Positions 14,144-64,000 of a stretch of DNA of 64,000 bases are shown here, piece by piece. Location: IMG/VR virus record IMGVR_UViG_3300045988_142085, positions 1-64,000 of that record. The stretch is one strand, 5' to 3'. Below the pieces are notes generated by a model, which searched no databases, was not told where the DNA came from, and saw only the letters and a program-made list of their open reading frames with translations. The DNA comes from a virus. A program made the translations under genes and the position numbers. Within the stretch, counting starts at the first letter, position 1; each line of letters starts with the position of its first letter.

Positions 14144-15322
14144 ATGGCAAATATAAACTATGAATCATTGTTCGCGGCAGAGCCAAACGAAGATTTAGTT
14201 TCTTGGTTATATCGCATGTATCTTGCTAAGCAAGAAAACAATAAATTAACAGTAAAAAGAATTAGTGGATTGGCTAAGACTTTTTTTGAAATAGATCTTG
14301 ATGTTACAACGATTAATAGTTACTTCAACGATTTTAAGAAAAATCTTACACCGGCATCTACCGACGAAAAATTAACGTCGGCAGCTGTAGATATGCTTCT
14401 TAACGCTCATGCTAAAAACGTGAATAGTAAAAACCGATCTGAACTTAATAAACACTTAAAATCGATTAGTGATCAATTCTTGTTAAAAGAATTAATCGTC
14501 GAGGCAATTTCCAAAATTGAACCTCTTAAATACGAATTTAAAGATCTCCAAAGCGGCGAGTCTGAAGCTGTACTATTATTAAGTGATTGGCATCGTGGAC
14601 AAGTAAGCGATAATTTCTTTAATAAATTCAATAATGAAATCTTCGACGAACGTGTCGAAAAATTAATGAATAAAACAAGAGAATATTGCTTACTAAATAA
14701 TATTAAAACTATTCACATTTTAACGTTAGGCGATATGATTAACGGCGGTATTCATGTACAAACACGAATCGAATCTCAAGAAAATCTTATCGAACAAACT
14801 ATCGGTGTAACAGAAGCACTAAGTCATTTATTTAACAATCTTAGCCAAGAATTTAATTTAGAATTATATTTCTGCCGCGGCAATCACGATCGTGTCACTC
14901 CTTCTAAAGAAGAAGCTATGAACGGTGAATCGTTTAGTGATATCATTCCTTGGTTCTTAAAAGAACGATTAAAAGGGAACAATCGTATTCACTTTAACGA
15001 AAACACTGTCGACGATGAAATTATCACGGCCGAGGTTTGTGGACAACGTATTGTCGGTGTCCATGGTCATAAAGATAATTTTAATAAAGCTATCGATAAC
15101 CTAGCATTATTTACGAAACAGATACCAGACTATATCGTAATGGGTCATTTCCATCATTCAAGAGAAGCTGACCTTAAAGGCGTCGAAATGATCATTAATC
15201 CATCGCTTTGCGGTAGTGATCGTTATGCAGTAGACGGACGTAAATTTTCTAAAGCCGGTCAAAAGCTTTTAATGTTAAATAAAGAAGATGGTCGATATGC
15301 CACTTACTTTATTAGTTTTTAA
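14144..15322 (+). CDS. calcineurin-like metallophosphoesterase with a 150-aa N-terminal extension
   Basis: This is the only substantial plus-strand gene. Motifs LSDWHRG (DxH), LGDMINGG (GD), CRGNHD (GNHD/E), GHFHH (GHxH). Upstream -10 TATAAT at about 14088 and RBS GAGGT. Confidence 0.65.
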   Translation: MANINYESLFAAEPNEDLVSWLYRMYLAKQENNKLTVKRISGLAKTFFEIDLDVTTINSYFNDFKKNLTPASTDEKLTSAAVDMLLNAHAKNVNSKNRSELNKHLKSISDQFLLKELIVEAISKIEPLKYEFKDLQSGESEAVLLLSDWHRGQVSDNFFNKFNNEIFDERVEKLMNKTREYCLLNNIKTIHILTLGDMINGGIHVQTRIESQENLIEQTIGVTEALSHLFNNLSQEFNLELYFCRGNHDRVTPSKEEAMNGESFSDIIPWFLKERLKGNNRIHFNENTVDDEIITAEVCGQRIVGVHGHKDNFNKAIDNLALFTKQIPDYIVMGHFHHSREADLKGVEMIINPSLCGSDRYAVDGRKFSKAGQKLLMLNKEDGRYATYFISF

Positions 15323-15397
15323 ACACCCGATAAAAATAAGTTATCATAGAGATTATAAATACTAAAAAGAAAAAATCGGCTATGCCTTTCATATTAT

Positions 15398-15441
15398 TTT
15401 CTCCAATCAAAAAAGCTTCCTATTTTTTAGGAAGCTTAATT
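15398..15441. terminator. bidirectional intrinsic terminator between convergent genes
   Basis: AAGCTTCCT-ATTTTTT-AGGAAGCTT hairpin, flanked by A-runs and T-runs on both strands. Confidence 0.55.
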
Positions 15442-15740
15442 TTTTTTACAATTTTTTCTAACGTATCAGGATTATTATTTAAACCAAATATAGTATCGAT
15501 ACCAAATATTTCTATCACGTATGATGCAGCGCCTATAACAATAACAAGGAACGCAATCGATAATAATATAGCTGATATTAAAGCAATCGGCATCAATAAT
15601 ATACTGAAAAACGAATTAAATAATTCAAAGAATTGACCGAGAATCCCGAATCCTAATGTTAAAAATAAATACAAATAAAAACAAAATTGTTTAGTCTTCT
15701 TTGTCATATCCAGAACCTGTGCTGTTGTGCAAACTAACAA
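15420..15740 (-). CDS. small hydrophobic membrane protein
   Basis: 106-aa ORF, mostly transmembrane-like segments. A second short membrane ORF sits at about 15890..16035. Confidence 0.35.
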   Translation of the reverse strand: MLVCTTAQVLDMTKKTKQFCFYLYLFLTLGFGILGQFFELFNSFFSILLMPIALISAILLSIAFLVIVIGAASYVIEIFGIDTIFGLNNNPDTLEKIVKKIKLPKK

Positions 15741-16080
15741 TCAGACAACAGATCATAACTGAAAAGAATAAAATTATTAAACTCATTAAAACTGCTGAAA
15801 TAACCAATTTGCTATCACCTTTAATATTAAAATAACGATACTTATATATTACTTTTTATCTTAGAAGCTCAGATATAAGAATTGAAAGAAAACTAACACA
15901 AAATAGTACAATAAAAATTCTATGTTGACGATTTTCAGATTCTTTAAGACTAAATAATCCTTGAAGACCGCCATAAATAACTGTTATTGCACACATAAAT
16001 AAACCGATATCAAATAGAATTTCAGATAACATAAAACACTCCTTATTTAAAATTCAATACTAAATTTATTTTTTATTATC

Positions 16081-16302
16081 TTATTTTTTAAACGAAAAGA
16101 ATATAACCATCTTACATGCTTTTACGTGATTTAAATGTCTAAATTTATGAATCTTCTGTGGATTAATACCACTTGCCGTTTTGTATACAATAGTTTTACC
16201 GTTTAATTCTCCCGAAACACGAGGAACGACATGTTCTATCGCATATTCAGAACAGCATCGATACATCTTATGACTATTTTTTCTTCTTAGCTTTCGTATC
16301 AT
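16081..16302 (-). CDS. hypothetical small basic protein
   Basis: 73-aa ORF. Confidence 0.3.
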   Translation of the reverse strand: MIRKLRRKNSHKMYRCCSEYAIEHVVPRVSGELNGKTIVYKTASGINPQKIHKFRHLNHVKACKMVIFFSFKK

Positions 16303-16304
16303 AA

Positions 16305-16709
16305 TCAGTTATCCTCAAAAACTTCTTCAAAAATTTTCTTTAATTCTTCTGCTGAAATATTTTTTAATCTTTCTTTGAATCTTGCTTTGTAAAGATCGAT
16401 CATGTCGTCATGTTCAGATTTTGCTTCTTCCATGGCCTCTTCATAACCATCGTCATGCCCTTGATCGTATCCATCGTCATAAGAAACATCAGGATATCTT
16501 TTTTCTTCGACATTATTTTCTAGCCACAAAGCAAGTTCTTCCTTATTATCTTCATTTCTTAGATCATAAATAATATCTTCGAGTGAAGTATTATTTGTAA
16601 GATTTCTCATAACATTATCTCCTTTTAAATATAAAATACGCAGCACTAAAAAAAATGTATAATGTATAAGCAGTTTTATATATGCAGATAGGTTACTTTT
16701 AATGCTCAC
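16305..16709 (-). CDS. hypothetical acidic protein
   Basis: 134-aa ORF with a Glu/Asp-rich C-terminus. Confidence 0.4.
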   Translation of the reverse strand: MSIKSNLSAYIKLLIHYTFFLVLRILYLKGDNVMRNLTNNTSLEDIIYDLRNEDNKEELALWLENNVEEKRYPDVSYDDGYDQGHDDGYEEAMEEAKSEHDDMIDLYKARFKERLKNISAEELKKIFEEVFEDN

Positions 16710-17883: not shown

Positions 17884-17971
17884 TGGAGGAGAAGGTGAGA
17901 TTCGAACTCACGGTACGTTTCCGCACGACAGTTTTCAAGACTGTAGCCTTAATCCTCTCGGCCACTTCTCC
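17884..17971 (-). tRNA. tRNA-Ser (anticodon UGA), type II with a long variable arm
   Basis: GGAGAAGTGGCCGAGAGGATTAAGGCTACAGTCTTGAAAACTGTCGTGCGGAAACGTACCGTGAGTTCGAATCTCACCTTCTCCTCCA: acceptor, D arm, anticodon loop CTTGAAA, long extra arm, T arm, CCA. Confidence 0.8.
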
Positions 17972-18171: not shown

Positions 18172-18249
18172 TGGGAGCGGGAATGGGATTTGAACCCATA
18201 CTAGACGAGCTTATGAGACTCGTGTCTCTGCCATTTGGACTATCCCGCT
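18172..18249 (-). tRNA. tRNA-Met/fMet/Ile2 (anticodon CAU), uninterrupted
   Basis: AGCGGGATAGTCCAAATGGCAGAGACACGAGTCTCATAAGCTCGTCTAGTATGGGTTCAAATCCCATTCCCGCTCCCA: acceptor AGCGGGA/TCCCGCT, anticodon stem CGAGT/GCTCG, loop CTCATAA, T loop TTCAAAT. Confidence 0.7.
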
Positions 18250-34539: not shown

Positions 34540-34772
34540 CTAATTATCCTTTCTTATAATACGAGAATGATATCCTTCTTTTTTATTCACAATCTTTAAT
34601 GCGATTTCATCGTAGCTGTCAGTCGCTATTAACTGATATACGAATACTGTATCGTGATTGCTGCTTGCGCGTTCAATTCGTCCATGACGCTGAGTCTGGA
34701 TCAAATAACTATCGGCTGGTTCCATCTCGATGAGGTACTTAGCCGATTGGCAATTCATCATTCTTGTGTTAA
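34540..34772 (-). CDS. SNF2-family helicase, exon 2 (motif VI)
   Basis: ...NTRMMNCQSAKYLIEMEPADSYLIQTQRHGRIERASSNHDTVFVYQLIATDSYDE (QxxGRxxR motif VI). In frame with exon 1 once the 263-nt intron is removed. Confidence 0.65.
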
Positions 34773-35035
34773 CTTACTATTTCTAGTAAGATCGGACTCT
34801 ATCTTTAATTTTTTATTTAAAAATTATTTCCTGTTCAATGTATACATTGTTTACTTATATCTTATTAAGATACTTTCAATAGTCTCTGAACCTTTATCTT
34901 TGTCACCAAAGATACTTGGCTGCGGATTGTCCAATCTTAATCTTTTTTACTGTATCAAGATAATTACTCTTGCCCCATATTATATCACTATATATGGTTA
35001 GTAGATTAAGCTCTAAGGAGATCCCCGTCAATTTA
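34773..35035 (-). ncRNA. group I intron (ORF-less, about 263 nt) in the helicase gene
   Basis: Minus strand carries R GGUUCAGAGACUAUUG (34892..34877), S AAAGAUAGAGUCCGAUC (34802..34786) and a P9 hairpin CUUACUAGAAAUAGUAAG ending in G. The 5' exon ends ...GCCCUCU (U). Splicing joins ...EQTHAL to FNTRMMNCQSAKYLIEMEP. Confidence 0.6.
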
Positions 35036-36321
35036 GGAAATTTAAAGAGGGCATGAGTTTGTTCACCCTCTGCGCCAGCGTTAGAAGCAATTAGGACATT
35101 ACATTCTTGTGTATTATTAAATTTTTGTAATTGATTATATCGTTCTTCACTTGAGTGAGAGCCATTAATAAAGGCGATTTGAATTCCTTTAAAACGATTT
35201 TCTAAATACGTTTTAAGAATTCCTTGTGCTGTTCTATACTTACAGAACACAACAACTTTTTCACCTTCACTTAAAATACTCTCGACTAAGTCTAAGAACA
35301 ATTCAATCTTTTCAGATTTTTCGCCAGTCACATATTCTTGTGCCGCTTTACTATCGCTTAGTAATAATAACTCATCACTAATAGTAAGCTCTTGAGCAAA
35401 TGTTTGTTTCATTAAGATCATATTATCGATCTTATTAAATTCTTCATTCTTTCTAGCTTCTTCGATCGAATTAAACCGTTCAAGCATAACTTCTTGTTGT
35501 GCTTTAAGATCTTTGATTTCTTCGAGGAGCTTATCACTCATAGCTTGTACTTTTCTACCTAAAGAGCAAAATTTTTGAGCGACGACAAGTTTAGGTAAAT
35601 GACTGCTTACTTCTTCTTTCGTTCGGATAATTAAATTATGTTTAATTTTATCGGTTAATTCTCGTTCATTACGAGAACCGATAATATATCCGAGACTATT
35701 CTTTTTGACATATTGTTTATCGAATTTATTTATATTAGTAAACAAATCTTTTTTGATAAATCTATATATGCCAAATATATCTCGAGGATTTTTTTGAATC
35801 GGAGTTGCTGTTGCTCCGAAAGTATACTTTATATTATTAAATTTATATAGGCTTTTACTTCGTTTGGCTTGATAGCTTTTTACATATTGTACTTCGTCGG
35901 CAAAAATATATTCTAATTTCATTGCCAACAAACGTTCTCGAACTTTTTCGTCGTTAAGCGTTTCATAGTTACAAATAAGTAAATCGCCAACAAACTGATT
36001 ATCGAAGTTTTTCTTAGCCTTTGCTGAAGTTTCTAAAATGCTCGGAATCAGATCACTAAACTTCTGAACTTCATGGAACCATTGAACTTTTAAACTACTT
36101 TTAACTACGATTAATCCTGGACCTTTTATTTTCTTACGGTCTAAAAGTTCTAGATAAAGATCGATCGCTATTAAAGTTTTGCCAGCCCCGCAGCTTGCGA
36201 CGATTAAGCTACCTTCATCAATATCGAGAAGTTCTTTTACGGCTGTCTTTTGATAATTATAGAGTTCATATTTACATTTACCGATACCTTCGATGCTAAA
36301 ATTCGGACAATATAATAGCAA
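35036..36321 (-). CDS. SNF2-family helicase, exon 1 (motifs I to V)
   Basis: Walker A SCGAGKTLIAID; DEVQ box FADEVQY; SNF2 signature FGATATPIQKNPRDIFGIYRFI; motif V IASNAGAEG. The track ORF 34903..36321 continues about 40 codons into the intron. Confidence 0.75.
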
Positions 36322-52348: not shown

Positions 52349-52692
52349 CAGATAGTTATTATCGCTGAGCTTTTTATCTCAGCCTCTGGAGATTTCTCTC
52401 ATTTTCATCGACTAGTCAGTTCTAGTCCAGCTTAGCGTACCTTTTCATCTCTTCCTAAATAGGACAAAAGTCTAAACAAGTGATGGGGCCTCTTGGAGAT
52501 ATTATATTCTTTATTTAAATAAAGGTTCAATCTCTACGCGTTGCGCCTGTTAATAATTTTAACTATTAACTTCGGTCTCTGATTAGCATATGTTTTTACA
52601 CTTAGCCTTCCAGTTTAATTCCCCATTAATAATCTAAGATCTTCGTTTAGAAGTTGATCTTAGACGGCAATAAATTTTTATAAAATTTCTTT
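52349..52692 (-). ncRNA. self-splicing intron (group I-like, second family, ORF-less, 344 nt) splitting the uvrD Walker A codons
   Basis: Exon 1 ends ...NAGAGSG (GGU) and exon 2 starts KTSTIVTRTAY, which restores GAGSGKT. The 5' exon ends in U and the intron ends in G. Long blocks are shared with the AAA-ATPase intron, including a P-like CUGGAAGGCUAAG. Confidence 0.65.
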
Positions 52693-54549: not shown

Positions 54550-56061
54550 CAAATGTTATTAACCTGTATATTTTTACATACAGCTCTGGAGGTTTTCCTC
54601 ATTTTCATCGATTAGTTAATTCTAATCCAGTTTAGCGTAACTTTTCACCTTAATTAAGATTCATAGGGTTGGGGCCTCTTGGTAGGATTATATCTTTTCA
54701 CCTACTACGCGTTGCGGCTGGCTTAACTTTGTTAAGCCTTCACCTCTGATTAGCATATTGTATATTAATACAACTTAGCCTTCCAGATTTTTTCCCCAAA
54801 GCTAGTCATCATCTTCTGAATCTGTTGATGACGACACGGCTATGCTATTTACAAATTGTCCTTTTTGATTTCTCATCCAAGGATGTTCTTTTTGATGGCA
54901 TTCTGTACATAATGAAAGACCATTTTTAAGATCATTAAATTCTATACTTTTAACAATGTCATCTAAATTATTATTATATTTTTGTACTATGCTATAAAGT
55001 TGTTCGATATGATGAACTATTATATCGGATCGTGATCCACATTTTTGACATGTATAATTGTCTCTTTTTAAACAAGAATTTTTCCAAATTTCATATTCTG
55101 TAGTGCTTCTTAAATAATGAGCAACTTCTGTATATGTTTCTTTTTCTTTATGTAAATATAATTTTTTATGCTCGTTACAACAAAAATGTTTTTTATGATT
55201 TTTAAATTTAGATTCTATTATTTCATATTTTTTATTACAATAATCACAAGAAACTTCAACACGTTTTTTTCGTGCCTCATGTGAACATTTACTAGAACAA
55301 TAGATATGTTTATTTTTTCCTTCAAAAAAATTTTTTAATGCGCCAATTGGCTTATTTATTTTTTCTCCGCAGAAATCACATTTTAATTCTTCTATTGTTT
55401 TTTTATTTTTTTCTTTTATATCTATTGCGTTATGATGCATACATTCTATTGAACAATATGATATATTTTGATTTCTTTTAGTTTGTTTTTTTACATAACT
55501 ATTTGGTAATTTAAATTTTTTTTGACAAAATTTACATGTAAACTCTGTAAAATTACCACGTATATCATTTTCTTTGTTGTAAATTTTGCAACATTCAGAA
55601 GAGCAGAAATAATGCTTTTTATTTTTTAATTTTTGCTGAACCTTAAATTCTTTTCCGCAACAATCACATTTTACATTTAATTGATTGCGCCCCCAATGTT
55701 TATCTTTACACTCTCGGGAACAAAATTTTATAGGTTGATTTTTTTTATTAGCATTTTTAATTTCTCGTTCACTTCTTTGAAACATATTACCACATTCAAG
55801 ACAAATATAATCATGATATACAATATTTTTATGCGCGTATTCATGCATACATTTCTTTGAACAAAATTGTGGTTCAAAATTTGGATTTTTTCTTTTTTGA
55901 AAATCAACTTCACATTTTCTTCTTTTAAAATCAGACATGCAGTTCTTGCATGCATAGTACAACCATATATTTTCTTTATTTTTCATAATTATCTCCTGTT
56001 AATATTCAGTATACATCTATATATTACAGGAGTTTCTTCAATTTGTAAATTTTAAAATTTA
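54550..56061 (-). mobile_element. self-splicing intron (same family as the uvrD intron) carrying an HNH endonuclease ORF, inserted just after the AAA Walker B region
   Basis: Exon 1 ends ...ILIDEAEKVLGG (GGU) and exon 2 starts YASSHQ. Its 5' end (UAAAUUUUAAAAUUUACAAAUUG) and its 3' 250 nt are homologous to the uvrD intron, with compensatory hairpin changes (GGAUUAG/CUAAUC versus GGACUAG/CUAGUC). Confidence 0.6.
54802..55986 (-). CDS. intron-encoded HNH endonuclease with six N-terminal Cys-rich (FCSxxC-type) zinc-finger repeats
   Basis: C-terminus CQKCGSRSDIIVHHIEQL...LCTECHQKEHP (HNHc). Repeats FCSKKCMHEY, FCSRECKDKHW, FCSSECCKIY, YCSIECMHHN, YCSSKCSHEA, FCCNEHKKLY. Confidence 0.75.
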   Translation of the reverse strand: MKNKENIWLYYACKNCMSDFKRRKCEVDFQKRKNPNFEPQFCSKKCMHEYAHKNIVYHDYICLECGNMFQRSEREIKNANKKNQPIKFCSRECKDKHWGRNQLNVKCDCCGKEFKVQQKLKNKKHYFCSSECCKIYNKENDIRGNFTEFTCKFCQKKFKLPNSYVKKQTKRNQNISYCSIECMHHNAIDIKEKNKKTIEELKCDFCGEKINKPIGALKNFFEGKNKHIYCSSKCSHEARKKRVEVSCDYCNKKYEIIESKFKNHKKHFCCNEHKKLYLHKEKETYTEVAHYLRSTTEYEIWKNSCLKRDNYTCQKCGSRSDIIVHHIEQLYSIVQKYNNNLDDIVKSIEFNDLKNGLSLCTECHQKEHPWMRNQKGQFVNSIAVSSSTDSEDDD

Positions 56062-57123
56062 ACCGCCGAGGACTTTTTCCGCTTCATCGATTAGGATAAC
56101 ACATTGTTTAAGTTCTCTTACTTGATTTAAGGCTCGTTCCATATTGCCTTCAGATGCGCCGACTAGACCTTGCATAATTTTACTTAAGTTAATATTTACT
56201 AATGGTACTTTTAACGTAGCTGCAATAATACTAGCTGCTACAGTTTTAGAACAACCAGGAACACCGAAAGCAATAAAGCCTTTAGGTTTCTTAATGCCGA
56301 GTTGTTTTGCTTCGTCTGTATAGAATTTAGGTAAAGTGGAAACATATTTTTTAAAAGCATGATAGCCACCCATGTCATTCAAAGACATTGTTGGATGAGA
56401 AATTTCTAACATACTTCCGTCGAAGTTTTCAGTTTTAAACTTATGAATATCGGCTACGCTTATATTACCAGATTTTGAACAATATTCTAAACATTGAAGC
56501 ATTTGAATATATGTTAAACCTAATAGTGCTTCGACACATTGTAATTTTTCGTCGCCAGTATGATACTTATTGAGATAAAGCTCGATTTCTTTAGCTGTCA
56601 AAGCATCTAAAGAAATACGATAAGCATAGTCAGCAAGCTCTTCAGGTGGAGCAAATGTTGCGACTACAAATACTGGAGCACCATTGCCTTTAAATGCCAA
56701 TACATCTAATAAAATTTTAGAATACATTGGATTTTTAAGGGCCATAGGTTCTACAAATAGATGAGGCGTATCTTTTTTATCTGGATTACCGACTTCTAAA
56801 AGATACTGATCATATTTATTTAAATCCGGTGTTACTTCACTTTTAATATCTTTAAGATAATTGAAGGAACACTGTTTATTATTTGCTACTAATTTTTTAA
56901 GATCGATAGATCCATAAGGATATCGTTGTGTACTAAGATATACTTTCTTAGTTTCAGAATTACCAAATGCAGCATCGAGAGAAAAATCTTCAAGATTTTG
57001 ACCTGCATCACTTAAAGAATTTAAAACGTAAGACATACCGCGTTCTAATTCTTCTGTTTGAATCCAAATTAATGGATTATATCCGCTTTTAAGACCAGAT
57101 TTAGATAACTTATTAAATTCCAT
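56062..57123 (-). CDS. AAA+ ATPase, exon 1 (N-terminal domain, Walker A, Walker B)
   Basis: Walker A GFIAFGVPGCSKTVAAS; Walker B CVILIDEAEK. Confidence 0.75.
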
Positions 57124-57137
57124 ATTTTCCCTTCCTT

Positions 57138-57608
57138 TTAGCCTACGAATTGAACTTGTTCGTCTTCAGGTAATACTGTATTAATTTTTTCAATGAAATT
57201 GATTACATTAGCTGCTGTTTCAGATACATCGACTTTAGCAGCTCGTGTTGTAGAATCTTGAGGCCAAGATTCGATTTCTTTATACATAGCCTTAAAGTCT
57301 TTGTCACATAGCTCCCATACTTTTTCCATAAGATTACGAGCCAAGAATAAATTAATGAAATTTTGATATTCATTCATGTTTTCGAGTGCTACTTTTTTAA
57401 CGATAGCTTGTTTAATTAGTGTTTCAATTTCGTTATCCCAATCGAAATGATGCTCGACTTCGATATTTTCATCGTTGACAACACCAGTAATTTTAAGTAC
57501 AGCATCGTCTTTATCTATGGTTAATACAGAATTTAATTTAAATGCTTTTTCTTGCTGATCGAAATTAAAAGTCTTATTAAAATAAGTGTCTTTAATGATT
57601 ACTTCCAA
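57138..57608 (-). CDS. hypothetical protein
   Basis: 156-aa ORF. Confidence 0.45.
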   Translation of the reverse strand: MEVIIKDTYFNKTFNFDQQEKAFKLNSVLTIDKDDAVLKITGVVNDENIEVEHHFDWDNEIETLIKQAIVKKVALENMNEYQNFINLFLARNLMEKVWELCDKDFKAMYKEIESWPQDSTTRAAKVDVSETAANVINFIEKINTVLPEDEQVQFVG

Positions 57609-61159: not shown

Positions 61160-61757
61160 TTAACTTTCTTCTAGTTCTTCGAGCTTAGCTTCAGAATCAC
61201 GAATTTCTTCGACTTCTTTTTCGCTAAGATCTTCAAATGTACCAGAAACCATATTAAGCAACTTTTTAAACTTATCTGGATTAGCAAGCATATCTTCACG
61301 GAACGCCATTTTACCGTTCCATTTATCTAACACTTCTCCAGTGTTAGGATCAATTTGTTGCATCCATGCACCAGCTTTATGAATGATGCCCATATCGACT
61401 AATTCATCGAGCGTACTTAAAATTTGTTCAATGCCTTGACCAAATATAGCAAAGTAGCTAAATTTACGATACGGGAATTCACCTGGAATAGCGTGATTTT
61501 TAGTAATCTTACAGTTAATTTTAATACCGTCTTCTTTACCGATAGGATCACTATCTAAGATACTACCTTTACGCATTTCGACAATCATTATACTGCCGGT
61601 TCTAATTGCTAGACCACCAGCTAATACAAGATTGTCGCCATACATACTAAAACCACCGATATTCGTAGTCAAATGCTGGATGAGAATCATAGCCGTGTGA
61701 TATTTACTAATTAAAGAAACAAATTTTGCTATAATTCTACTATTCATACGCGCTTGG
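61160..61757 (-). CDS. recA: RecA recombinase, exon 3
   Basis: (L)QARMNSRIIAKFVSLISKYHTAMILIQHLTTNIGGFSMYGDNLVLAGGLAIRTGSIMIVEMRKG (compare E. coli [63 protein letters not shown]). Confidence 0.75.
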
Positions 61758-62121
61758 CTTTTTGCCGTGGACTATATCATTATCCTATTATATATAGGAT
61801 ACCTAGTTTTTGGATTTAATGGGATTTCACCAACCCTAGATTAGGGCCCTACTCCTTTTGCCATATTTATATCTTAGCGTCTGGCCAATGGGATAGTCTC
61901 TGAACTTTATTCCTTTAAGAATATTAGCTGCTGATTATCTATTGTTATGTCACTTAGCACTGTCTCTAGCTTTTATTTCAGCATATGACAAACTAATTAT
62001 TTTTTCTGTCTTTCGACAACATTCACATTTATTATTTCTAATTATGTTGTAGTTAATTAGTTATTAAGAACTTCCAGCAATTTACTAGGTTTTCACATTG
62101 TATTACTACAATATGCCTTCC
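61758..62121 (-). ncRNA. group I intron (ORF-less, about 364 nt), recA intron 2
   Basis: Minus strand carries P AAAUUGCUGGAAG, Q AAUCAGCAGC, R GUUCAGAGACUAUCCC, S AAUGAUAUAGUCCACGG. The 5' exon ends ...CACGUGCU (U) and the intron ends in G. Splicing gives SKHVLQARMNS. Confidence 0.65.
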
Positions 62122-62438
62122 AGCACGTGTTTGGAGGCGACGCTTACGTCTTTAAGACTCTTATTAGCTTCGGATTCAGGAACCAAAGCTTTTAGAGTAT
62201 TAATACAGAACAAGTCTATAGCACCAGTTTGAATTAATGCTTCAGCTTGATCGATACAGTCTTCTGCAGTATGATCTCGATCATATTGAATGAAATAAAA
62301 TCGTTCTGGATCGATACCAAATTGATTGACCATATAATCTAAGCTTAAAGATGCTTCACTTTCAATCCATAAGGCAAAATGTCCTTCTGGATTTTCACGA
62401 TGCATTTTACCGATTGTTTCAAGCACTAAACTAGTTTT
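62122..62438 (-). CDS. recA: RecA, exon 2
   Basis: KTSLVLETIGKMHRENPEGHFALWIESEASLSLDYMVNQFGID...AIDLFCINTLKALVPESE (compare E. coli ...LDPIYARKLGVD...VDVIVVDSVAALTPKAE). Confidence 0.75.
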
Positions 62439-62652
62439 CCTTTATACCCTCGGTTTCCCGATATTTATTAGGGGAGTAGACTATATCATCATCTTAATTA
62501 AGATGTTCTGCGCTTCCGTTACGAATGTAACGTACTCCTTTCGGATAGTCGTTGGGGCGCAATTAAGCTGCCTGCTGATTACCTCGATGGGCTTCCCAGC
62601 ATATCACAGAATTTGCATATAATTATCACTAATTATAGGGGCAAAATTAATT
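62439..62652 (-). ncRNA. group I intron (ORF-less, about 214 nt), recA intron 1, inserted in the Walker A codons
   Basis: Exon 1 ends ...IAGVADSG (GGU) and exon 2 starts KTSLVL, which restores GxxxSGKTS. Minus strand carries P AUAUGCUGGGAAGCC, Q AAUCAGCAGG, R CCCAACGACUAUCCG, S GAUGAUAUAGUCUACUCC. The intron ends ...AAAGG. Confidence 0.65.
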
Positions 62653-62922
62653 ACCCGAGTCTGCAACGCCAGCGATAGTCGTAATTTTCCCAATCGGAAA
62701 ACCACCGCCAGTTGCTGCATTAAAGTTAACAGATGGTGTCGGAATAAATCGAATATTAAGCTGTTCCTGAACTTTAGGATCACTTAATCGACCGACAACC
62801 ATGTTGTTCTTTTTCTTAGCCAAGTTAGCCATTACAAGATCTAATCGCTTACGTCTTTCGACGTCAGTTAAGACTTGAGAATTGCTAGCTTCGACAATTG
62901 GTTCAGCTTTCTTTCTTGCCAC
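62653..62922 (-). CDS. recA: RecA, exon 1
   Basis: MARKKAEPIV...RKRLDLVMANLAKKKNNMVVGRLSD...NFNAATGGGFPIGKITTIAGVADSG (compare E. coli ...[31 protein letters not shown]). Confidence 0.75.
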
Positions 62923-63990: not shown

Positions 63991-64000
63991 CTATCAATGT

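Follow-up and report, generated by a model that had tools for sequence, protein, structure and literature searches.

Group I introns are a common feature of the DNA-metabolism genes of phages (PMC3984707), and the closest described systems lie in recA itself. In phage 0305phi8-36 of Bacillus thuringiensis, a group I intron that encodes I-Bth0305I interrupts recA at a conserved motif (Taylor et al. 2011, PMC3239194), and in the B. anthracis/B. cereus group a survey of 21 strains with the recA intron found a full endonuclease gene in one strain and none in the other 20, where the intron still splices (PMC2504315). Here we analyzed a stretch of 64,000 nucleotides (nt), positions 1 to 64,000 of the IMG/VR virus record IMGVR_UViG_3300045988_142085 and hereafter ‘the window’, in which the recA gene is likewise interrupted at conserved motifs. 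Comparison with related phages indicates that this gene is very probably interrupted by two self-splicing group I introns resembling subgroup IA, whose boundaries we correct here and whose removal would give a RecA of 390 amino acids. The host of this gene is an uncultured phage of ∼230 kb, jumbo-sized by the length of several related contigs (228–232 kb), and the G+C content of the window is 32%.

An earlier note on this DNA, made from the sequence alone, had proposed that recA carries two group I introns without open reading frames (ORFs), the first of them exactly in the Walker A codons, and this proposal holds: both introns match the Rfam group I model RF00028, both show covariation, and the ORF list contains no ORF of at least 60 amino acids, and so no candidate homing-endonuclease gene, lying within either intron. 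The three minus-strand ORFs of the region (62922-62647, 62426-62106 and 61747-61160) successively match positions 2-64, 78-160 and 164-261 of the Pfam RecA profile (PF00154, 262 positions), which confirms their assignment to the N-terminal, middle and C-terminal segments of RecA. Translation starts at a GTG codon preceded by GAAAGGAAG. To follow the gene through its relatives, we read intron states from tblastn searches of the 390-residue product against loci fetched from public assemblies, which are numbered with the prefix L. The product is colinear from end to end with those of the intronless alleles L136 (98% identical) and P0001/L001 (about 90%), and among the 167 RecA homologues found the best is 90% identical (E 1.8e-234). 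The end of exon 1 is supported both by DNA alignment with L001 and by comparison of the junction with L136, and the Walker A motif GVADSGKT is intact once intron 1 is removed, as expected if the host gene is recA. Coordinates are collected in Table 1, where, as in the text, ^ marks a splice junction.

Table 1. Positions of the recA gene, its exons and introns, and their main structural elements in the window
Feature	Coordinates	Strand	Description and basis
recA gene (pre-mRNA span)	61160..62922	minus	Three ORFs, RecA profile and intronless alleles
recA coding sequence	join 62922..62653, 62438..62134, 61757..61160	minus	1173 nt, 390 amino acids plus stop
Exon 1	62653..62922	minus	90 codons, ending ...GCA GAC TCG GGT (A D S G); RecA profile 2-64
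Intron 1	62439..62652	minus	214-nt group I intron without an ORF, separating the Walker A codons for Gly and Lys (GVADSG^KT)
Intron 1 P1 hairpin	62639..62656	minus	GGGU^AA (62656-62651) with UUGCCC (62644-62639)
Intron 1 P7 region	62479..62550	minus	GACUA (62550-62546) with UAGUC (62483-62479)
Exon 2	62134..62438	minus	305 nt, AAA ACT AGT (K T S) to ...GTC GCC TC; profile and L001/L136 comparison
Intron 2	61758..62133	minus	376-nt group I intron without an ORF, splitting a Ser codon behind its second base, ...DVSVAS^QARMNS
Intron 2 P1	62115..62138	minus	GCCUC^CA (62138-62132) with guide sequence UGGAAGGC (62122-62115); Rfam alignment, RNAalifold
Intron 2 P7 region	61770..61898	minus	GACUA (61898-61894) with UAGUC (61774-61770)
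Endonuclease-gene insert point in intron 2	61762..61764	minus	1.45-kb insert in L003/L004, L133 and L135; absent from the window
Exon 3	61160..61757	minus	598 nt including stop, starting C CAA GCG CGT ATG (xxC Q A R M); profile and L001/L136

The boundaries of intron 1 follow from several observations. The codons on its two sides are GAC UCG GGU and AAA ACU, and an in-frame stop lies two codons inside the intron (AAT TAA). Removal of 62439..62652 joins ...GVADSG to KTSL..., as the earlier note had stated, and reproduces the sequence of both intronless alleles, L136 and L001; in six relatives that have only this intron, the gene exceeds the intronless one by exactly 214 nt. In a search of the whole window, RF00028 matched positions 62662-62457 with 64.8 bits (E 3.7e-14) and thereby exceeded the gathering score, which is 50. 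At the 5′ splice site, U62653 and G62642 form the canonical U·G pair, which is present in all nine sequences compared, and a run of U (62646-62643) directly 5′ of G62642 could form P10 with the AAAA that opens the 3′ exon. The P7 strands enclose P3′ (62512-62506) and P8 (62505-62499 with 62496-62490). The terminal guanosine (ωG) is G62439, and the 3′ splice site is fixed by L127, a diverged copy in which only one G stands before AAAAC. From the nine distinct copies, RNAalifold recovered P1–P6, P8 and a P9 hairpin, with compensatory changes in 8 of 58 pairs. The P/Q/R/S elements noted before, that is, the P4 and P7 strands, are indeed present in both introns, and at the DNA level parts of the core of intron 1 are 86–95% similar to phage introns over about 60–80 nt.

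Intron 2 lies in the L1-loop region of RecA. Excising its 376 nt gives ...DVSVASQARMNS..., identical to the protein of the intronless allele L136, whose DNA reads ...AGT CTT AAA GAC GTG TCT GTA GCA TCT CAA GCC CGT ATG... and encodes SLKDVSVASQARM. Ten aligned homologues, with identities of 43–91%, all share the spacing DVSVA-x-QARMNS, with V, A, S, L or M at position x. At the 3′ end, the terminal guanosine G61758 is kept in all copies, as is AAAAG^CCA, whether or not the copy carries an endonuclease gene. In L003 the stop codon of the endonuclease gene lies 8 nt upstream of the G at the 3′ splice site, the L127 copy has a TGA in frame at two codons upstream of the site, and just upstream of it the copies differ between five and six A residues, a length variation because of which this stretch cannot be coding. 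A 3′ splice site at G61758 means that exon 3 opens at the third codon position (C CAA GCG). By this comparative evidence GCC UC^C CAA is the only candidate junction that would keep the terminal G, the reading frame and an L136-type protein, and because of this junction and the intronless allele we give the length of RecA as 390 rather than 394 amino acids. The ligated junctions predicted for the two introns are GACTCGGGT^AAAACTAGT and GTCGCCTC^CCAAGCGCG or, at other lengths, GCAGACTCGGGT^AAAACTAGTTTA and AAGCGTCGCCTC^CCAAGCGCGTATG.

Other placements of intron 2 were considered and rejected. A 5′ splice after U62135 combined with a 3′ splice after G61765, where the Rfam alignment ends, gives ...VASKSQARMNS with two extra residues, pairs U62135 with A instead of G, and puts the A5/A6 length variant inside the would-be exon; moreover, in L003 the G in question lies 1.4 kb upstream of exon 3. 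A 5′ splice after U62140 leaves the protein two residues short (DVSVQARMNS), and the P1 that it needs, AGCGU/GUGCU, is absent in the L127/L002 lineage. Shifting both sites together keeps the frame; a shift by −1 gives Cys and an intron that ends in A, and a shift by +1 gives the same mRNA with an intron that ends in C.

The fold of intron 2 is conserved across relatives. RF00028 aligned over its whole length (1-253) to positions 62143-61765 in a 601-nt search (44.7 bits, E 3.6e-10). The P1 stem GCCUCC/GGAAGGC, which Rfam and RNAalifold draw alike, shows no variation in 17 copies, which represent two lineages with 76% identity, while the P1 loop varies in both sequence and length, reading AAACACGUGCU in the window, AAAUACAUGCU or AAAUACGUACU in other copies and GGGUUUU in the L127/L002 lineage. 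The P7 strands enclose P3′ (61807-61802) and P8 (61801-61794 with 61788-61781), P5 carries a large extension at about 62062-61949, and hairpins of the P7.1/P7.2 type, typical of subgroup IA, lie at about 61891-61817. We measured covariation on a curated structure, with P7 treated as a pseudoknot, in 12 distinct copies, using shuffles and slid structures as controls. Across the 96 pairs, 98.8% of cells can pair, and compensatory double changes occur at 15 pairs, a number reached in none of 500 shuffles and to be compared with 0–3 in the slid controls. The compensatory pairs include P2, P3, P6, P8 and the long P5 extension, while P4 (UGCUGG/UCAGCA) and P7 are invariant. At the DNA level parts of the core, including the P5 extension, are 69–76% similar to phage introns over about 150–200 nt. 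Judged by this pattern of substitution, intron 2 is a maintained ribozyme.

The window contains a third group I intron, of 306 nt at 35064..34759 on the minus strand, which interrupts motif V of an SNF2-family helicase gene (...SNAGAEG^MNCQSAKYLIEMEP) between the flanking ORFs 34903-36321 and 34540-34761. Its match to RF00028 spans 35094-34773 with 66.2 bits, and its boundaries were placed from the reading frame together with P1 (AGAGGGU/GCCCUCU, containing U·G) and P10 (AUG/CAU); splicing at the Rfam 3′ end, 34773, would give a premature stop. In all three introns of the window the RF00028 alignment stops short of the true 3′ splice site, by 18, 7 and 14 nt for the ends 62457, 61765 and 34773, respectively, and therefore Rfam coordinates alone give wrong exon junctions.

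What sets intron 2 apart is its 5′ splice site, where the reading frame and the intronless allele both place C62134 in the position that U occupies in a U·G pair. This C stands opposite A62119 of the guide (C·A), or opposite G62120 if A62119 bulges. For all three introns the guide complements the ligated exons without a break, namely UUUU-G-CCC with GGGU^AAAA in intron 1, CAU-G-CCCUCU with AGAGGGU^AUG in the SNF2 intron and UGG-A-AGGC with GCCUC^CCA in intron 2, which gives U·G at the splice site in the first two and C·A in intron 2. In intron 2 a possible P10 joins UGG (62122-62120) to the CCA that starts the 3′ exon (61757-61755). RNAalifold, which cannot score C·A, draws a bulged A62119 with a C62134-G62120 pair. 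From these pairings we infer that the P1/P10 register of intron 2 is either the one with C·A or the one with C-G and a bulged A. Coding constraint does not explain C62134, because V, L or M stands here in many homologues, so that U at codon position 2 would be tolerable.

The U:G pairing of the 5′ splice site in group I introns has been described as critical (PMC8395846). For a natural C·A pair at this site, we found nothing specific in the literature. In the Tetrahymena ribozyme, a C·A wobble can take over in part from U·G. Going by its title, a study by Hur and Waring (1995, Nucleic Acids Res 23:4466) reportedly deals with two group I introns that have C·G instead of U·G, and these are said to be fungal mitochondrial introns. 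Like intron 2, they would be natural group I introns in which C occupies the 5′ splice site; unlike in those introns, the contiguous P1/P10 register of intron 2 puts the C opposite an A, with which a wobble is compatible, and a C-G pair needs the bulged A. A C at a group I 5′ splice site is thus unusual but has precedent. We consider it quite possible, if short of probable, that in intron 2, a natural group I intron, C·A (C62134/A62119) stands in place of U·G and has been kept in two diverged phage lineages with no codon forcing it. If so, this C·A would be a natural counterpart of the engineered C·A substitutions made in ribozymes, and splicing of intron 2 might depend on protonation of the adenine, and hence on pH, or on a register shift in which CCA:UGG pairs form alternately in P1, with the 5′ end of the intron, and in P10, with the 3′ exon. 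Were splicing confirmed, intron 2 would offer a rare natural test of how strict the U·G wobble requirement is.

In the mechanism that we favor, recA and both introns would be transcribed as one pre-mRNA in which each intron folds into a P1–P8 ribozyme core. Exogenous guanosine would attack the 5′ splice site within P1, and the 5′ exon released by this step would next attack the bond after the terminal G of the intron, yielding an mRNA for the 390-residue RecA. Intron 1 would splice canonically, with U·G in P1 and GGU^AAA joined across the Gly-Lys junction of Walker A, intron 2 would splice GCC UC^C CAA with C62134 presented by its guide UGG-A-AGGC, and both introns would have lost, or never had, a homing-endonuclease gene. 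The data establish the identity of both introns and their boundaries, the conservation of the folds, the sequence and length of the product, and the polymorphism of introns and endonuclease genes among relatives; that splicing occurs and is self-catalyzed, we infer.

Several considerations weigh against this mechanism or parts of it. The exact ligated junction of intron 2 (GCCTCCCARGC...) was not found as DNA in a scan of IMG/VR; in separate scans of IMG/VR, the 14-mer TGGAAGGCATATTG gave more than 120 matches, mostly by chance, and a 26-mer from P2–P4 was specific. To our knowledge, nearly every group I 5′ splice site has U and other nucleotides are very rare there, and in the Tetrahymena ribozyme a non-U 5′ splice site lowers activity. 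Covariation cannot choose between C·A and the bulged C-G register because P1 is invariant among the copies. Finally, the Rfam score of intron 2 lies below the gathering score (44.7 versus 50 bits), and this ORF-less intron has no P9 hairpin, only 12 nt (CACGGCAAAAAG) separating P7 from the 3′ splice site. The missing P9 probably explains the low score, and the shortfall fits the loss of P9 together with large insertions in P5 and after P7.

Another possibility is that intron 2 splices at the corrected site but does so poorly or conditionally, either with the help of a protein cofactor or with the non-U site throttling RecA expression. By analogy with the ribozyme literature, a non-U site and the loss of P9 may be expected to weaken self-splicing; the sequence holds no sign of a cofactor or of regulation, and two diverged lineages retain an identical P1, which argues for adequate function. 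We regard this possibility as rather unlikely. We think it very improbable that intron 2, or both introns, no longer splice and that recA is a pseudogene or is expressed as separate fragments. The C at the 5′ splice site, the missing P9, the low Rfam score and the absence of an endonuclease gene could all be signs of a dead intron, and an AAGGA motif upstream of the GTG at 62426 could serve translation of a separate fragment. However, the exons are intact, free of frameshifts and stops, and share 96–99% identity with the exons of relatives, the fold is kept by compensatory substitutions between lineages, copies that have no endonuclease gene persist in many independent contigs, and fragments could not bind ATP because the P-loop is cut between Gly and Lys.

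We give next to no credence to the intron 2 of the earlier note (62121..61758, 364 nt, spliced after U62122), which restores the reading frame, has U at the splice site and allows a 5-bp hairpin with U·G (GUGCU/GGCAU) to be drawn, but which predicts the junction ...CACGTGCT^CCAAGC, ending ...GTGCT^CCAAGC, and a RecA of 394 amino acids with SKHVL before QARMNS (...VASKHVLQARMNS...), four residues longer than every aligned homologue and the 98%-identical L136, while its hairpin overlaps a 9-bp P2 stem itself backed by covariation, the 12 nt concerned differ among copies in sequence and length, and in L127/L002 the U before GGAAGG falls at codon position 1 and would shift the frame. The 3′ end proposed there, G61758, stands, and the 5′ end is 12 nt off, the true start being 62133: U62122 lies in the variable P1 loop, at its 3′ edge, and is the first base of the guide sequence. 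The likeness to an E. coli RecA stretch that had been cited for the longer protein stems from a misalignment, as the intronless phage protein already has the E. coli spacing, from the Pro of ALxP to ARM.

The two-intron structure with corrected boundaries can be set against the intron states of related loci. Among phages whose RecA is 96–99% identical, no intron is present in L136, intron 1 alone is present in L143, L147, L149, L150, L151 and L154, intron 2 alone in at least seven contigs, and both introns in the window, L003/L004, L126, L133 and L160. In the L127/L002 lineage (60–81% identical, depending on the exon), L127 has both introns and L002 only intron 2. Loci with about 75% identity are mostly intronless, with the Walker A site occupied in L155/L156, L157 and L191/L193. 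The Gly^Lys site of Walker A is occupied in relatives down to 41% identity, L213/L214 (41–44%) being the most distant of these. Four intron states thus co-exist in one phage lineage, and therefore the double-intron state of the window is not unique. Such a range of states among near-identical phages is as expected of mobile introns, and on this comparison the two ORF-less introns of the window make up one state of a mobile, polymorphic system.

Endonuclease genes are found in several of these relatives. The insert in intron 2 of L003/L004 encodes a homing endonuclease of 449 amino acids, and in the separate L002 lineage an endonuclease gene is inserted at the corresponding place. The L003 protein combines N-terminal helix-turn-helix motifs with a C-terminal DUF559 domain (Pfam), and its C-terminus matches PDB 3R3P, the catalytic domain of I-Bth0305I from the Vsr-like family (E 1.7e-14). 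The Walker A intron of L155/L156 (2744-4001) carries a LAGLIDADG ORF of 304 amino acids. A third recA site, near residues 230–235 in the L2 loop, holds insertions of 0.4–1.4 kb in the distant relatives L215, L216 and L218 and none in the window. In public metagenomes, the near-identical phages with each combination of introns 1 and 2, some with endonuclease genes and some without, form a natural series of intron and endonuclease states, ready for studying intron gain, loss of endonuclease genes and co-conversion.

The best RecA match among sequenced phages is ∼31% identical; megablast of 20 kb of flanking sequence against sequenced phages gave no match, and megablast of the recA exons against them gave only short intron-core matches or nothing. 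By these searches the phage appears to be without a close sequenced or cultured relative. Automatic annotation will report recA here as three fragments.

Several further features of the window and its relatives were seen in passing. A minus-strand ORF of 394 amino acids at 54802-55986 has many CxxC zinc-ribbon repeats, for which Pfam zinc-ribbon matches are weak, and a C-terminal HNH-like motif (HHIEQL...CTECHQKEH); a 1.2-kb block around it (54846-56055) is absent from L001 and L003 and therefore looks like a free-standing homing-endonuclease insertion. In L003, positions 15187-16443 hold a TnpB/IS605 OrfB (Cas12f-like) gene between radical-SAM/156-residue protein genes and an AAA ATPase gene, and the equivalent site of the window, at about 57119-57156, has no such insertion. 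Beyond the end of the window at 64000, positions 1-2877 of L003/L004 hold a gyrB-like gene that is seemingly split into an N-terminal part (HATPase_c, DNA_gyraseB) and a C-terminal part of 55 amino acids (DNA_gyraseB_C), with an HNH_3/AP2 ORF of 213 amino acids between them; a further intron carrying an endonuclease gene probably lies here. Two tRNA genes (RF00005) lie on the minus strand of the window at 17887-17971 and 18175-18249 (56.6 and 50.0 bits), the first with a long variable arm. A stretch of ∼96 nt seemingly occurs twice, at 52355-52450 and at about 54554-54649, and each copy aligns with L001 12479-12574, the first at about 85%, as well as with L003 17783-17878.

Compared with known systems, the basic finding is ordinary, since group I introns are well known from genes for replication and repair in phages, recA among them. 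The I-Bth0305I of 0305phi8-36 and the intron 2 endonuclease of the sister phage L003 belong to the same Vsr-like family. In contrast, the placement differs, since the 0305phi8-36 intron interrupts the L2 loop (F224-G225-D226-P227), the region of the insertions in L215, L216 and L218, whereas those of the window interrupt Walker A and the L1 region; and the ORF of the 0305phi8-36 intron lies in P5, whereas that of intron 2 in relatives lies at the 3′ end, in place of P9, and the window copies are ORF-less. The recA intron of the B. cereus group (Ko et al. 2002, cited in PMC3984707) shows the same cycle of gain and loss of the endonuclease gene as the lineage of the window, but it is bacterial and chromosomal and occupies a single recA location. 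Staphylococcus phage Twort has two introns in nrdE, going by the citation of Landthaler et al. 2002 in PMC3984707, and the intron family of Twort and the Herelleviridae resembles the window in having several small IA-type introns in one DNA-metabolism gene, although the host gene and insertion sites are other than those in the recA of the window. Parts of the cores of introns 1 and 2 resemble introns of Herelleviridae and other Firmicutes phages, the phages being those of Staphylococcus, Listeria, Enterococcus, Lactococcus, Brochothrix and Bacillus. What is new here is modest and consists of the series of intron and endonuclease states, the non-U splice site, and two further recA insertion sites at catalytic motifs, Walker A Gly^Lys and the L1-loop region, which are added to the L2-loop site of 0305phi8-36.

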